NCBI GenBank assembly: GCA_965221875.1
Contig: OZ244920.1
Coordinates: 1,001,845 to 1,065,844, forward strand
Direction of reading: 5' to 3'
DNA length: 64,000 bases
Origin: Thermodesulfobacteriota bacterium
GTDB lineage: Bacteria; Desulfobacterota_D; UBA1144; Nemesobacterales; Nemesobacteraceae
Position numbers and translations under genes: made by a program. Below are positions 53,377 to 59,107 of this stretch, piece by piece. Position 1 is the stretch's first letter. The number at the start of each line of letters is the position of its first letter. Under the pieces are notes generated by a model. That model saw only the letters and a program-made list of their open reading frames with translations. It made no database searches and was not told the DNA's origin.

Positions 53377-54036
53377 ATGAGCTACGGAGCAGTTGTATTT
53401 GACCTTGACGGAACCCTGATTGACTCTCTTGAGGATCTCGCTGACGCCGTGAATCAGGCGCTTGCCATAAGCGGGTTTCCAGCGCGCGCGACCGGATGCT
53501 ACAAGTACTTTATAGGAAAAGGTCCAAAGGTCATGGTGTCCAGAGCCCTTCCCGAGGACAAAAGAAACGATGATGCTGTCGTTGAAAAGTGCCTTGACGA
53601 TTTCAACAGAATCTACAGCTGCTCTTTCAACGTGAAAACCACGCTTTATGACGGCATACCGGATCTTCTGAACGAGATTTCAGATAGAGGTCTGAAAAAG
53701 GCGATTCTTACCAACAAGCCGCACGTGTTTACCGAAAAATACGTTGAGGATCTGCTTGCTGACTGGAATTTCGAGGTGGTTATAGGTCAGAGGGATGAAA
53801 TTCCGAGAAAGCCTGATCCTTCGGGAGCGCTTCGGATATCAAGGGAGCTCGGGATTGAGTCATCGCGGATGGTTTACCTGGGAGACTCCGGGGTGGACAT
53901 GCTTACCGCCGTCGGGGCAGGTATGCTTCCGGTAGGAGTTCTCTGGGGCTTTCGAACAGGGGATGAGCTTCGTGAAAACGGAGCCGAACATCTTATAGAA
54001 ACTCCGATGGATCTGCTCTCGATTATTGACTTGTAG
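53377..54036 (+). CDS. HAD-superfamily hydrolase (phosphoglycolate phosphatase-like)
   Basis: VVFDLDGTLIDS motif I, LTNK motif III region and GDSGVDM motif IV. Confidence 0.8.
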   Translation: MSYGAVVFDLDGTLIDSLEDLADAVNQALAISGFPARATGCYKYFIGKGPKVMVSRALPEDKRNDDAVVEKCLDDFNRIYSCSFNVKTTLYDGIPDLLNEISDRGLKKAILTNKPHVFTEKYVEDLLADWNFEVVIGQRDEIPRKPDPSGALRISRELGIESSRMVYLGDSGVDMLTAVGAGMLPVGVLWGFRTGDELRENGAEHLIETPMDLLSIIDL

Positions 54037-54046
54037 TTTCCGGTGT

Positions 54047-55201
54047 ATGATGACCATGGATTTTGAACAGGTAAAACTGGGGATTCTCGGGGGCGGGCAG
54101 CTGGGGAAGATGCTTTGCCTCGTGGCAAGCAACTGGAACCTGAGCACCTACGTGCTCAATCCTTCCCTCGATTGTCCGACGGCGTCTGTGTGTACCGAGT
54201 TCTCCCACGGCGATTTCAGGAATTACGAGGATGTCTACGAGTTTGGCAGGAATGTCGACATCCTGACAATAGAGATTGAGCACGTGAACCTGCAGGCGCT
54301 TTTCCGGCTGCGGGAGGAAGGAGTCGTCATAAGGCCTGAACCCCACGCGCTTGAACTCATACAGGACAAGGCGAAACAGAAGAAGTTCTACGTTTCAAAG
54401 GGGCTCCCCACAGCCGATTTTTTGGTCTTTCCGGGGAAAGAGGCTATAGTTGCGGCCGTCAGGTCCGGTGAGATAAAAATTCCTTTCGTCCAGAAACTTT
54501 CAAGGACGGGTTATGACGGAAGAGGAGTTTATGTCGTCAGAGAAAAGGAACAGCTCGACGATCTTTTAGAAGGAGAATCCGTCATTGAAGACCTCGTTGA
54601 TGTGGAAAAGGAGATTTCCGTTATAGTCTCGCGTAATTCAACCGGAGAAACTAAATGTTTTCCTCCGGTTGAAATGCTGTTTAACAGCAATGCAAACATA
54701 GTTGAATTCCTGATAAGTCCCTGCGAGCTTGACGATGCAATGTCCGCTCAGGCATGTGAACTTGCCGAGCGCACGATAAGGTCTTTTGACATGTGCGGGA
54801 TACTTGCGGTTGAGATGTTCGTTTCCAAAAAAGGCGGTATCCTCATAAACGAATCCGCTCCGAGACCGCATAACAGCGGGCATCACACGATTGACGCGGC
54901 CCGCACCTCGCAGTATGAGCAGTGCCTGAGATCGATTCTTGATCTTCCCCCGGGAGATACTGAAATAAAAACTCCTTCTGTTATGATTAACATTCTCGGG
55001 CAACCGGGTTTCGAGGGCGAGGTAAGGTACGAGGGACTTCGTGGATGTATGGGCGTTGAAGGAGCCAAGTTCCACATATACGGTAAGACCCTTACCAAGC
55101 CTTACAGAAAGATGGGGCATGTCACCGTGCTTGACGATGACCTTTCAGGCGCGATTGAGAAAGCGAGATTCATAATGAACAATCTGAGGGCAATAGCATG
55201 A
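54047..55201 (+). CDS. purK: N5-carboxyaminoimidazole ribonucleotide synthase
   Basis: [14 protein letters not shown] and the ATP-grasp fold. Overlaps purE by 4 nt. Confidence 0.9.
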
Positions 55202-55722
55202 AGCCTGCTTTGGTAAGCGTTATTATGGGTTCTGACTCGGATCTTCCGGTTATGGCAGAAGCGGTTGAGGTTCTGGAACAATTCGGCGTAGAGCATGAAG
55301 TTACCATAGTCTCGGCGCACAGGACTCCAGAGCGGCTTGTGGACTTTTCAAAAAAAGCTCATAAAAGAGGGATTAAAGTTATAATAGCCGGGGCGGGAGG
55401 TGCAGCGCATCTTCCAGGAATGGTGGCTTCCGTTTCTCCCCTTCCGGTCATAGGGGTTCCGATAAAATCCTCAAATTCGATTGATGGATGGGACTCTGTG
55501 CTTTCTATTCTGCAGATGCCTTCAGGCGTCCCAGTTGCCACGGTTGCCCTCGGCGGGGCGAAAAACGCCGGCATACTTGCCGTTGAAATTCTTTCGATTG
55601 CTGATCCTGAGCTTGGGCGTGCGGTAGCTGAGTATAAAAAAAAGCTTTCATCCGAGATAAAGAAAAAGGCCTCGAAGCTTGAGAAACTGGGTGCTTCGGT
55701 CTATCTTGAGCGGATGGACTGA
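55198..55722 (+). CDS. purE: N5-carboxyaminoimidazole ribonucleotide mutase
   Basis: [14 protein letters not shown] and [14 protein letters not shown] motifs. Confidence 0.95.
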
Positions 55723-55781: not shown

Positions 55782-57581
55782 CTAAAAAAAAGAGTCGAGT
55801 GGGCGGGGGATAATCTGAGAATTACCAGAAAACATTGTTTTCTGTTCGTCTAGGTCTTCAAGAAATTTCTCACGCGTACGAAAGAGAAAAGACCAGTAGG
55901 AAAAATCAACATTAACAACCTTGAGTTTGGCTTTTTCAAGGATTTTTTCCGCTTCATCTGATTTTCCCGTAGCCCAACTGGCGAGGCTTATTTGTTGCAG
56001 ATAACTTGCCGAATAATTGCTTTTATCCATTCCCGAGTCAAGTACGGATTGAAAGATATCTACCGGTACTTTAGCAGTTTTTCCCCAAGTCGCCATAGCT
56101 AGATTAAACAGAGTATTCTGATCAGAAGCATTTTCTTTAAGTTGTTTTTTACATATTTTGATGGCTTCAGCGAGTTCGCTTTGACCTATAAGATTCAGGA
56201 CAAGATCATTCTTAAGCTCGGAATTTTTATCTGATTTTGCTATGGCGGAGCGAATCAGCAACTCAGCCGAAGAAAGCAGATGCCAGTCGAAGCTGAGCAA
56301 TTGCGCCAAAAATAGCAAATGGTGTTCATTCAGTTCTTTAACCGCAGGCCAAGAATCAATCTTATCGAGTTTTTCAGGCTCGTTACCCGACAGTACCCGG
56401 ATGATTTGACTCAGTTCAAGTATCCCTAGGTTTTTCTGCTGAATGGCAATCAAAGCGGTTTCGACTTTTCTTTCCACTTGTAATGACCCATACGCAAATT
56501 CATTGAATGATATTTCCGACGAAATTTTGTCTTCAAGGTATTCTGATAAAAGACTTGATGAAAATTTTTCTTCTCCTTCCTTTTCAAACCGTTTCACCAG
56601 AGACAAGATATTTTTGTCTTTTCCGTGATTCTCGATAATTTTTTTAATTTGTTCTTCCCGAGCACTTTTAAATGATGTTTCATCTTGTCGCACAAGCTCA
56701 TCCCTTAAAAACATCAAAACACCTTCTCGGTCTTTGGGGTTGTTTTTTCGGATTGCTGTTACAAGTTGATTGTATTCGTCGGCAAGACGGCTTTTGGGCC
56801 TGTCACGCGTGAAAATGTCCTGATTTAGCAAAGCGAGACTAGGGTAATGATGAATTGTTGCGGCAAGCTCACTGTATTGCAGCTCGGTTCCGAAACCTGA
56901 CAGAGTCTCTTCCAGAACACTGTTTTCATCATCTAGGTCAGGGACATTTGAAGTTACAAAATGCAGAGTTATAGAGTCTTTGCCAGGGAATTTCTCTTTT
57001 CTTATATCATTTTCTTTCCTTACCCGATTGACGATGCGAGTTAACCCGATAAGGTTCTGGCGGTTAGGAAAAAACAGACACACTACAGCATTAGGAAGCT
57101 GTCGGGTGCAAACACCTCCTTCATCAGTGTGTCCAGTTCTTGAGTCAATCAATACATAGTCAGGTTTCAGGTAGCTTTTCCACTGAGCTTTGAGGTCCTC
57201 AAGCAACAGGTAACCGTCTCTTTTGTCGTAAAGTTCCCTCCAGTTAATGGAGTTCATGAGATCAGCGTACTTTTCATCTCTCCTTCCAGCGGACATAAGC
57301 CACAGTTCACCCCCAGAAGAATCATCGGTGGAACTCCTGAAGACGTATTCATCAATTTCGGGAACTATTCCAGTCTTTATGTAATCATATACGAAGTCAA
57401 CGACACCCGGATTCTGGTTTGCCGAATTGGGAAGAGCAAAGGTGTCCAGCCCTGGTGCTTCCAGATCAAAATCCACCACCAGAACTTTTTTCCCTTTAGC
57501 GATCAAGGCAAATGCGGTATTCATCATCGCCATGGATCTTCCCACTCCGCCTTTGAACGAATAAAACGTTACTGTGTACAT
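55782..57581 (-). CDS. ParA/MinD-like P-loop NTPase (deviant Walker A KGGVGRS) fused to a about 300-aa alpha-helical (TPR-like) C-terminal domain. Function unknown.
   Basis: N-terminal FYSFKGGVGRSMAMMNTAFALIAKGKKVLVVDFDLEAPGL and VLIDSRTG (Walker-B-like). C-terminus is helical and repetitive. Local GC is about 40%. Confidence 0.5.
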   Translation of the reverse strand: MYTVTFYSFKGGVGRSMAMMNTAFALIAKGKKVLVVDFDLEAPGLDTFALPNSANQNPGVVDFVYDYIKTGIVPEIDEYVFRSSTDDSSGGELWLMSAGRRDEKYADLMNSINWRELYDKRDGYLLLEDLKAQWKSYLKPDYVLIDSRTGHTDEGGVCTRQLPNAVVCLFFPNRQNLIGLTRIVNRVRKENDIRKEKFPGKDSITLHFVTSNVPDLDDENSVLEETLSGFGTELQYSELAATIHHYPSLALLNQDIFTRDRPKSRLADEYNQLVTAIRKNNPKDREGVLMFLRDELVRQDETSFKSAREEQIKKIIENHGKDKNILSLVKRFEKEGEEKFSSSLLSEYLEDKISSEISFNEFAYGSLQVERKVETALIAIQQKNLGILELSQIIRVLSGNEPEKLDKIDSWPAVKELNEHHLLFLAQLLSFDWHLLSSAELLIRSAIAKSDKNSELKNDLVLNLIGQSELAEAIKICKKQLKENASDQNTLFNLAMATWGKTAKVPVDIFQSVLDSGMDKSNYSASYLQQISLASWATGKSDEAEKILEKAKLKVVNVDFSYWSFLFRTREKFLEDLDEQKTMFSGNSQIIPRPLDSFF

Positions 57582-57604
57582 ATGTTAAATTGTGTTTGAG
57601 GGTC

Positions 57605-58138
57605 TCAGTGCCACAGACTGAATGCATCCTGCCGATTTTTTGCTTCTTCCATGTTGGGAATATTCCTGAAAATGGGTTCCAAGTCCTCAGCAGAATCGCT
57701 CCGCCTTTTCCGCAGAATTTCAAGATTCTCTGGTCGGCTTAACAGGTAGAGGAAATTATCCATAGCTTCATTTTGAATCAGATAACCCCGTTCCCACCTG
57801 CTTAGGGATGCTTCGCCAATTCCCGTTTCATGGGAAAATTCTTTCTGAGACATATTCATAGACTCTCGAATATGAAGTATCTCTTTAGGTGTCAGCACCC
57901 CTAGGTAATTACATACGGCTTCATGTCTCAAATCATCCGCCTTGCTGTCTGTATATTCAGTGGAACACTCATTACACCTGTAGACATCTACAATTGCGCT
58001 CAGAAAAATGCTTGGTTCAGCATTTCCATACTCAAACCTGTCTTCTTCTTTTCTTATGTGCACATCAGAAGACCCGCACATGTGGCAGATAATATTCTCT
58101 TCTGAAGAAGACGGATTAATTTTGCTATTCCTGTCCAT
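57605..58138 (-). CDS. MqsA-like antitoxin (N-terminal zinc ribbon plus C-terminal XRE-type HTH)
   Basis: CHMCG...CNEC zinc-ribbon cysteines. HTH region LTPKEILHIRESMNMSQKEFSHETGIGEASLSRWERG and LLYLLSRPENLEIL parallel E. coli MqsA (FSRYEKG, LLRVLDKHPELLNEI). Confidence 0.6.
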   Translation of the reverse strand: MDRNSKINPSSSEENIICHMCGSSDVHIRKEEDRFEYGNAEPSIFLSAIVDVYRCNECSTEYTDSKADDLRHEAVCNYLGVLTPKEILHIRESMNMSQKEFSHETGIGEASLSRWERGYLIQNEAMDNFLYLLSRPENLEILRKRRSDSAEDLEPIFRNIPNMEEAKNRQDAFSLWH

Positions 58139-58153
58139 TTTGATACTCCTTTT

Positions 58154-58537
58154 TTAACTGCGATTATTTCTCTCCCGGTCACTGTAATGAAAACTTCGTC
58201 CAAACAGCCATTTTTGGCCCTTTCCGAATTGCAACTTGATGTATATATCCTGTCCTGTCTCCTGTTTAAACAACATCACATACCCTTTTTCTCCCGGGGG
58301 TTTTTCAAGGGTGATAACCTCAATACGATGCCTATCGCGCAACAGTTTTTCGATAAAATACCAGCATCCTGTAGAGGTGAACGGCATTCCTACAGTAGGG
58401 TCGGGATTGGTAACCCTGGTTGGTTCCCAGTGCACTGGTCGCTCTTTTGAAAACGTAGCACTTCTTTTCCCTGCTTCAATCAACTCTAACATCTTCTCCC
58501 TAACTTCATCCAGATTTTCTTTTTCCGACATGATCAT
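58154..58537 (-). CDS. MqsR-like toxin (RelE/ParE superfamily), putative
   Basis: Placed immediately upstream of the MqsA-like gene, as in mqsRA. Weak similarity to MqsR (…AGKRSATFS… and …GQDIYIKLQF…). Confidence 0.45.
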   Translation of the reverse strand: MIMSEKENLDEVREKMLELIEAGKRSATFSKERPVHWEPTRVTNPDPTVGMPFTSTGCWYFIEKLLRDRHRIEVITLEKPPGEKGYVMLFKQETGQDIYIKLQFGKGQKWLFGRSFHYSDRERNNRS

Positions 58538-58554
58538 ATGGTTTGATCATATGA
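58531..58554. promoter_or_regulatory. Tandem copies of the palindrome-containing 10-mer TGATCATATG overlapping the start codon of the MqsR-like gene; a related ATCATATGAT motif lies 45 nt upstream (candidate operator)
   Basis: Seen directly: 58531-58540 and 58545-58554, plus 58596-58607. Confidence 0.3.
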
Positions 58555-58678
58555 CTATTTAGCTTTATTGAAAAAGAAGTCTATGTCAACAAATTAATCA
58601 TATGATAAGCTTGTTCAAGCTTTTTGGGATTTTACTGCTTTTCATCGGTCCGTACGAACTGATCCGTCTTTCCGATAT

Positions 58679-59107
58679 CTACTGTATGGTCTTTTTATCC
58701 GGTTCGTAACCCCGTACGGGGATTGGCGAAGCATGATGAAAGATCATAAGCCACCTGTCGTCTTGCTTCTCGAATATGTTGGTTGACTGAGAGAGATTGA
58801 ACATTACCGGGTCCCTTTTTATGTATACCATCTCCTGCAGGCAGGTAACCCAGGCGATGTTGTCGTTTATATCCACGGTCACGTTTGAAATGCTGATGTC
58901 AACCTGATCCTCAGGGTCAAAAACGCTTTCCCAGCTCTGCCTTATGGCTTCCCAGTTGCGAAGAGCTGTCCATCCCGGATGGACGCAGCCGGACCTTGAG
59001 TCCTTTACCCAGACCTCTCCCATTAGCTCCAGATTCCTGGTTCCAAGGGCCTCGTAAAAAAGGCTGTTGATCCTAAGTATTTCTTCGCTGTCTTCTTTCA
59101 TGGCCAT
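58679..59107 (-). CDS. NTF2-like / SnoaL-like domain protein
   Basis: 142-aa protein. Pattern IAWVTCLQEM...DDRWLMIFHHAS is typical of the ketosteroid-isomerase/NTF2 fold. Confidence 0.45.
   Translation of the reverse strand: MAMKEDSEEILRINSLFYEALGTRNLELMGEVWVKDSRSGCVHPGWTALRNWEAIRQSWESVFDPEDQVDISISNVTVDINDNIAWVTCLQEMVYIKRDPVMFNLSQSTNIFEKQDDRWLMIFHHASPIPVRGYEPDKKTIQ

Follow-up and report, generated by a model that had tools for sequence, protein, structure and literature searches.

The stretch analysed here, a window of 64,000 nucleotides from contig OZ244920.1 of a Thermodesulfobacteriota bacterium (assembly GCA_965221875.1, positions 1,001,845 to 1,065,844 of the forward strand), contains a cassette of three genes, called A, B and C in what follows, whose products are a putative toxin, a MqsA-family protein and a large MinD/ParA-fold protein, and which is a real co-conserved unit across many bacterial phyla. 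As an earlier note made from the sequence alone had described, the genes are three co-oriented, tightly spaced open reading frames (ORFs), all on the minus strand (55782-58537). The gaps between them are 15 nt (A to B, given as 16 nt in that note) and 23 nt (B to C, as given there), and an AAGGAG lies 7 nt 5' of the ATG of gene B. The GC content over 55782-58608 is 41.5%, against 51.4% in the remainder of the window, in agreement with the patch of roughly 40% GC reported before. One flank of the cassette is formed by purK/purE (54026-55722, plus strand) and the other by a SnoaL-like gene (58679-59107) followed by rseP and dxr; the flanks had been named as purE and a uppS-dxr-rseP block, of which purE, dxr and rseP are present here and uppS was found only in syntenic relatives. 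The three genes and the parts of their products that matter for our analysis are these:

58154..58537, minus strand: gene A, 127 aa (125 aa from the start used by gene callers, an ATG at 58531, two codons in), an MqsR-fold protein and putative endoribonuclease toxin by predicted fold and motifs
57605..58138, minus strand: gene B, 177 aa, a zinc-ribbon and XRE helix-turn-helix (HTH) protein of the MqsA family (TIGR03830, PF15731), putative antitoxin and autorepressor
57608..57709, minus strand: C-terminal tail of B, residues 144-177, extending past E. coli MqsA, with F155-R and a terminal F-x-L
55782..57581, minus strand: gene C, 599 aa
56727..57581, minus strand: N-terminal MinD/ParA-fold domain of C, residues 1-285, with KGGVGRS at residues 10-16
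55782..56726 (stop codon included), minus strand: C-terminal all-helical domain of C, tetratricopeptide-repeat (TPR)-like, residues 286-599, including a short beta hairpin (558-569)

With an alignment of C as the query of a genome scan, at least 575 relatives of this protein were confirmed, and our locus counts rest on the best 80 of them, which were fetched by similarity to C (34-71% identity) and whose six-frame ORFs were searched with the A, B and C of the window, using phmmer and, for divergent A, a hidden Markov model (HMM). These 80 loci span at least 10 phyla and include Gamma-, Beta- and Alphaproteobacteria, Myxococcota, Acidobacteriota, Planctomycetota, Spirochaetia, Binatia, Latescibacterota, Gemmatimonadota (Gemmatimonas), Bacteroidota and the window's own Dadabacteria-like clade. 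A homologue of B lies directly upstream of C in all 80, and a homologue of A upstream of B in 76, 75 of them found by phmmer (including L080, where A is split into two fragments) and the divergent L028 by HMM only. The slot of A is filled by an unrelated small protein in three Planctomycete loci, and in L050 (3131-4300) a rve-type transposase gene or insertion sequence (IS) disrupts A, leaving a C-terminal remnant in frame with B. The median distance from the stop of B to the start of C is 5 nt, and 91% of the loci have 25 nt or less. Furthermore, the proteins co-evolve: the pairwise-identity matrices of A, B and both domains of C correlate with each other (r 0.74-0.87, Mantel p 0.001; r 0.74-0.83 among the three proteins). 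The co-conservation on which the earlier note had made its proposal depend is therefore borne out, and the finding that would have counted against it, a 599-aa protein occurring alone or in unrelated contexts with a known housekeeping role, did not appear, since C was never alone in the sampled loci. Regarding a fourth component, no family was common to more than three loci among 147 immediate flanking ORFs. A search begun from A rather than C also yielded the A-B-C arrangement (L088). One distant lineage (L089-L092, 5001-8197) carries A and B without C, and its A is 29% identical to that of the window. In L089 the C-less pair is followed, after a gap of about 700 nt, by a 547-aa gene with no Pfam match and no similarity to C.

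These data bear directly on the simplest alternative, namely that an ordinary mqsRA-like pair merely adjoins an unrelated ParA-like gene in this genome. Toxin-antitoxin pairs are known to insert in many places, and nothing beyond that speaks for such a chance adjacency. The invariable contact of B and C across phyla, the very short median gap and the co-evolution of the proteins argue so strongly against it that, after the neighbourhood survey of the 80 loci, we rejected it and give it hardly any probability.

By its matches to curated models, B is a member of the MqsA antitoxin family. With TIGR03830 it scores 71 bits (cut-off 61.8), aligned over positions 1-126 of 127 of the profile, and with PF15731 it scores 35.3 bits (cut-off 30), over positions 3-130 of 131; its zinc ribbon is formed by CxxC pairs at residues 18-21 and 55-58 (C18, C21, C55 and C58), and an HTH_3 domain was found at residues 90-119 (E 2.6e-7). 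The cysteines and a 'GEA.L.RWE.G' helix are conserved across the family, and in PADLOC B gave weak RmrA and HTH matches only. In addition, B presumably exceeds E. coli MqsA by about 35 residues at its C-terminus. Mean identity over this tail is low (23%), with the aromatic positions of F155-R and F-x-L conserved in at least 90% of the loci. These motifs are kept in variants in which toxin and operator have been swapped and C has been retained, and they are absent in the one C-less lineage (L089-L092). This pattern, together with the constancy of the B-C pair, suggests that C probably acts through B, via its conserved C-terminal tail, for which the concave face of the TPR-like domain of C would be a candidate surface.

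Gene A most likely encodes a small protein of the MqsR/RelE fold acting as an endoribonuclease toxin, as judged from its structure model, which has the three-dimensional fold of MqsR and gave MqsR as its best structural match. The residues invariant in the family are W37, P39, W59, P80, Y99, K101 and G113-R-S-F-H117, and the polar ones among them (Y99, K101, R114, S115 and H117) are located on the last two strands, which is where RelE-superfamily RNases would carry their catalytic residues. They are plausible candidate equivalents of the catalytic residues of MqsR. In this regard, the C-terminal R-x-F-H-Y of A resembles the R-Y-H-Y of YoeB and, likewise, the S-F-K in which MqsR ends.

The full-length structure model of C (pLDDT, the predicted local distance difference test score, 88.6) consists of two domains, the first of which has the MinD/ParA fold. 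Against NCBIfam NF047398 ('KGGVGR-motif variant AAA ATPase'), residues 2-187 of C score 174.9 bits (cut-off 90) over positions 3-189 of 190. The ParA/MinD-like NTPase fused to a helical, TPR-like domain of the earlier description is recovered. K10, G11, G12, G14, R15, D37, D39, D146, S147, R148 and G150 are invariant in C across 87 homologues. The same description had the signature lysine of KGGVGRS replaced by Arg; the motif is found as described, but it is the canonical P-loop Lys that is replaced (R15, an Arg in 87 of 87 sequences, which departs from the deviant Walker A pattern KGGxGK[ST]), and K10, the signature Lys of the deviant Walker A, is kept without exception. D37 and D39, in VDFDLEAPG, and D146, in LIDSRTG, which by analogy to MinD we take to be the switch I and Walker B aspartates, are invariant as well. 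The invariance of K10, D37, D39 and D146 speaks for a nucleotide pocket that works and against a domain in decay, and the retention of all pocket residues but the P-loop Lys predicts that C binds nucleotide and dimerises, with slow or no hydrolysis. C had no SecB match in the profile search and matched nSTAND at E 0.16 only. In several close relatives (L002-L005) C has been called in the public annotation from a start 16-18 codons further downstream, giving products of 586-588 aa; these calls cut off the KGGVGR motif, so the proteins have no ParA/CbiA Pfam annotation, though the longer ORF is intact.

Upstream of A we found a short repeated element. The earlier note had reported repeated TGATCATATG motifs over the start codon of the first gene; these are present and are better described as copies of a 10-bp palindrome, ATCATATGAT, which is conserved across phyla, occurring upstream of A in 72 of 81 loci, with two or more sites in 39. 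The sites of the window and the hexamer that lies among them are the following:

58597..58606, no strand: distal operator, an exact ATCATATGAT just upstream of TTGACA and the only exact copy in the 64-kb window
58584..58589, minus strand: TTGACA, a -35-like hexamer located between the distal operator and the proximal one
58546..58555, no strand: proximal operator 2, GTCATATGAT on the minus strand, with one mismatch, 51 bp from the distal operator; its TATGAT is also -10-like
58533..58542, no strand: operator 3, ACCATATGAT on the minus strand, with one mismatch, overlapping the first ATG of A

These three sites are the only matches to ATCATATGAT with at most one mismatch in the whole window. 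Across the loci, 113 such matches fall in the 23 kb upstream of A and 16 in the other 876 kb, which is a roughly 270-fold enrichment, and of the exact copies 45 lie upstream of A and 1 elsewhere. The sites usually form pairs, with a typical spacing of 41 or 51-52 bp and positions near -80 and -39 relative to the start of A. No good -10 element lies at 16-18 nt from TTGACA, and a consensus scan proposed TTTTCA-17-TATGAT, ending inside the proximal operator, so we treat the promoter assignment at gene A as tentative; the -10-like half-site TATGAT suggests repression by promoter occlusion. The palindrome also co-varies with the recognition helix of B, which ties the motif to this protein: in the three Planctomycete variants the helix reads RWI or RWL, not RWE, and ATCATATGAT is absent, with other palindromes in its place (in L076, two of the TGAC-N4-GTCA type, 41 bp apart). 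The C-less A-B pair of L089-L092 keeps ATCATATGAT operators, which indicates that the operator belongs to the A-B core. The operator reported for MqsA itself is a different one, ACCT-N(2-4)-AGGT. ATCATATGAT and the HTH of B would form a DNA-protein recognition pair fixed across phyla, which looks unusual for toxin-antitoxin operators.

The reading we prefer, and consider reasonably likely, is that the cassette is a self-contained, horizontally mobile tripartite module of the toxin-antitoxin type, in which B represses the operon and neutralises the RNase encoded by A, and C is a nucleotide-bound switch that controls B through its tail. According to this, A would be an endoribonuclease toxin neutralised by the zinc-ribbon domain of B, and the XRE helix-turn-helix dimer of B would bind the ATCATATGAT palindromes, whose position flanking or overlapping the promoter and the start codon suggests that B represses the operon. 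We infer RNase activity and toxicity for A and both roles for B in this scheme. C would be a nucleotide-binding dimerisation switch of the MinD/ParA fold, fused to a TPR-like peptide-binding solenoid that holds the conserved C-terminal tail of B, much as SecB holds the antitoxin extension in toxin-antitoxin-chaperone (TAC) systems. A signal received by C, which might be physiological or might be a protein from a phage or foreign element, would then alter the stability or availability of B and release A, and growth arrest would be the outcome.

MqsRA-type modules and three-part toxin-antitoxin systems are already known, and the cassette shares features with both. As in MqsR-MqsA (E. coli ygiU-ygiT; PDB 3HI2), the toxin gene comes first, the second gene encodes a protein with a CxxC...CxxC zinc ribbon and an XRE HTH, the toxin candidate has MqsR as its closest structural match, and palindromic operators lie in the promoter. 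Unlike in that system, similarity of A to MqsR is not detectable at the sequence level and A is the longer protein by about 27 residues, B carries the conserved C-terminal tail, and a third gene of 600 aa is obligatorily linked. The tripartite logic is closest to TAC systems such as mqsRAC; mqsRAC and higBAC, with a SecB-like chaperone, are cited among them in PMC11980606. The order of toxin, antitoxin and third protein and the C-terminal extension of the antitoxin are common to TAC systems and the cassette, and in both the third protein would act on the antitoxin rather than on the toxin. The third protein itself is different, a MinD/ParA-fold KGGVGR NTPase with a TPR-like domain in place of SecB. 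Of this Lys-to-Arg ParA/MinD-fold NTPase with its TPR-like domain as a fixed third partner we found no description. The literature searched held no published account of the three-gene combination, in line with the earlier statement that no system joining an MqsRA-type module to such an NTPase-repeat protein was known, and as the coverage of this search was incomplete the result amounts to absence of evidence only. Characterisation of the cassette would reveal a new way of controlling an antitoxin and give a role to the large, enigmatic family of KGGVGR ATPases, so far called 'inactive', and experiments are feasible in culturable hosts such as Colwellia marinimaniae, Pandoraea pneumonica, Pyxidicoccus fallax and Rhizobium gallicum.

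The prominence of C within the cassette raises a second possibility, in which C is the output, a catalytically dead MinD/ParA mimic acting as an effector (for example by disturbing cell division or DNA segregation), and A and B are a regulatory or addiction pair. C is the largest component, no other part of the cassette is as well conserved as its ATPase domain (mean pairwise identity of 59%), and the pairing of B with C is kept more constantly than A, for which three loci have a substitute. Additionally, Kaur et al. (2020; PMC7159879) predicted 'inactive' MinD/ParA-like domains that occupy effector positions in conflict systems, and the NF047398 domain probably corresponds to them. The N-terminal 187 residues of C match that ATPase model end to end, with the same Lys-to-Arg change in the P-loop. 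That work describes the domain as part of multidomain vWA-MoxR/VMAP and AP-ATPase proteins and makes no mention of MqsA, whereas C stands alone as a protein, has its own helical domain and shares a fixed operon with an MqsRA-like pair. Against an effector role for C, the invariant Tyr, Lys, Arg and His of A on an MqsR/RelE fold are typical of an active RNase toxin, the nucleotide pocket of C is complete apart from the Lys-to-Arg change, and the C-less A-B pairs with the same operator fit a complete toxin-antitoxin pair that C modulates. We regard an effector C as improbable.

The fold of C, the translational coupling of its gene to that of a DNA-binding protein and the repeated palindromes upstream also recall type Ib par loci, which likewise have upstream repeats and autoregulate. 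In a DNA positioning or partition module of this kind, furnished with an addiction toxin, B would be the centromere-binding adaptor on ATCATATGAT and C the ParA-type motor. The cassette was in fact found on four megaplasmids, with Rhizobium and Polymorphobacter among the hosts, where adjoining genes are annotated 'MqsA family'. Partition needs ATP hydrolysis, as is established for the Lys-to-Arg mutants of ParA and SopA, and the P-loop Lys is invariably Arg in C. The sites are only two or three and all at the promoter, C has a 300-aa TPR-like domain that partition ParAs are without, B is an MqsA-family antitoxin by its profile matches and is paired with an MqsR-fold protein, and most copies are single chromosomal insertions that adjoin unrelated housekeeping genes and lack replication or integration genes in their vicinity. 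A partition function seems to us even less probable than an effector function of C.

These observations on genomic context return us to the toxin-antitoxin-type module and its mobility. The GC content of the cassette is below that of its flanks in 97% of 76 loci (mean difference -6.4 points, p 4e-14), and outside the window's clade its neighbours differ; together, low GC and differing neighbours are the signature of a horizontally moving module. The presence of the cassette on megaplasmids is a further hint of mobility. In 50,697 phage records, tblastn found nothing that matches C. About 13 of the 147 immediate neighbours (about 9%, a raw count for which the background rate is uncalibrated) are strong PADLOC matches, which comprise a type I methyltransferase, MADS, a CBASS cyclase, SngC, PDC candidates and DISARM. 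In a Pirellula sp. metagenome-assembled genome (MAG; L076, 4-10642) the variant cassette is flanked by DrmMI and DrmA of a DISARM system (PADLOC, E = 0 for both) and runs on their strand, and the cassette of L088 is beside HsdR and two toxin-antitoxin pairs. The defence association is suggestive only, and an anti-phage role of the cassette is plausible as an analogy. The earlier note had expected PADLOC to be silent, which was not the case, since residues 3-220 of C match PDC-M28B at 2e-32 (profile positions 130-346 of 438). PDC-M28 is an untested 'guilt-by-embedding' candidate of three other protein families (Payne et al. 2024, bioRxiv), given in the supplement of that work as anonymous family numbers only. 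The likeness is confined to the ATPase domain of C, as A and B match no PDC-M28 component and the full set of components is not found in the cassette.

A more far-reaching version of a defence role would make C the first SIMIBI-class pattern-recognition switch, a functional analogue of STAND/NLR sensors, whose TPR-like domain senses a phage or mobile-element protein and whose nucleotide-dependent dimerisation captures or releases the antitoxin tail, leading to abortive infection by the MqsR-fold RNase. If true, tripartite immune modules of this kind would form a family that is both new and widespread. Compared with NTPase-TPR sensors of the STAND or NLR-like kind (Avs, MalT), the NTPase of C belongs to the SIMIBI MinD/ParA class and C has no fused effector domain. 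We hold this version to be rather unlikely, though clearly less so than C as an effector or as a partition motor.

Several observations weigh against the toxin-antitoxin-type module that we prefer. The first of them concern A, whose assignment as a toxin draws on predicted fold and motifs. A had no Pfam or NCBIfam match at E <= 1 and no PADLOC match, its family profile, run against PDB sequences, recovered no MqsR at E <= 10, and in hhalign the E. coli MqsR (a sequence identical to 3HI2 chain B) gave a non-significant probability of 0.4%, in an alignment that covers only the Y81 strand (YIKLQ vs YLKIT) out of MqsR K56, Q68, Y81 and K96. We therefore rejected an identification of A as MqsR by sequence, the fold comparison alone being positive, and the diverged mqsRA pair of the earlier note stands for B by curated MqsA models and for A by fold. 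The proposed contact between the tail of B and C would, in turn, depend on conservation patterns and a single C-less lineage. The Lys-to-Arg change could leave C inactive, as a pure scaffold, in line with the 'inactive' label and the effector positions mentioned above, and the C homologues of L066, L082 and L084 are cut short at 308-456 aa. These come from two Binatia MAGs and one Gammaproteobacteria MAG and end after the ATPase domain or partway through the helical domain; they are possibly pseudogenes, or else natural variants without the sensor domain. In addition, most immediate neighbours of the cassette are housekeeping or metabolic genes with no consistent defence-island signal, and the idea of a consistent defence island was rejected on account of this heterogeneous, mostly metabolic neighbourhood. 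Lastly, the cassette is old and apparently vertically inherited in the window's own clade, where close relatives carry it at the same site, between rseP-SnoaL and purE. The acquired island proposed before is supported by a GC content lower than that of the flanks, but the acquisition was not recent, given the synteny among close relatives.

The small protein that takes the place of A in the three variant loci (L058, 443-805; L059, 1188-1583; L076, 4051-4398) is 115-130 aa long and has the pattern 'GGEIDQ...YHYDFRF...IY.ETV.D'. It gave no Pfam match and no hhalign similarity to family A, and it may or may not share the fold of A. The SnoaL_3/DUF4440-like gene between rseP and the cassette (58679-59107, minus strand, 142 aa) is outside the low-GC block, and its position is kept in syntenic relatives. 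In two close relatives mobile DNA was found next to the cassette: in L009 (2397-4051) about 1.6 kb of it lies between the operators and A, and in another, known from an ENA contig, the IS genes HTH_Tnp_1 and rve lie between the SnoaL gene and A.

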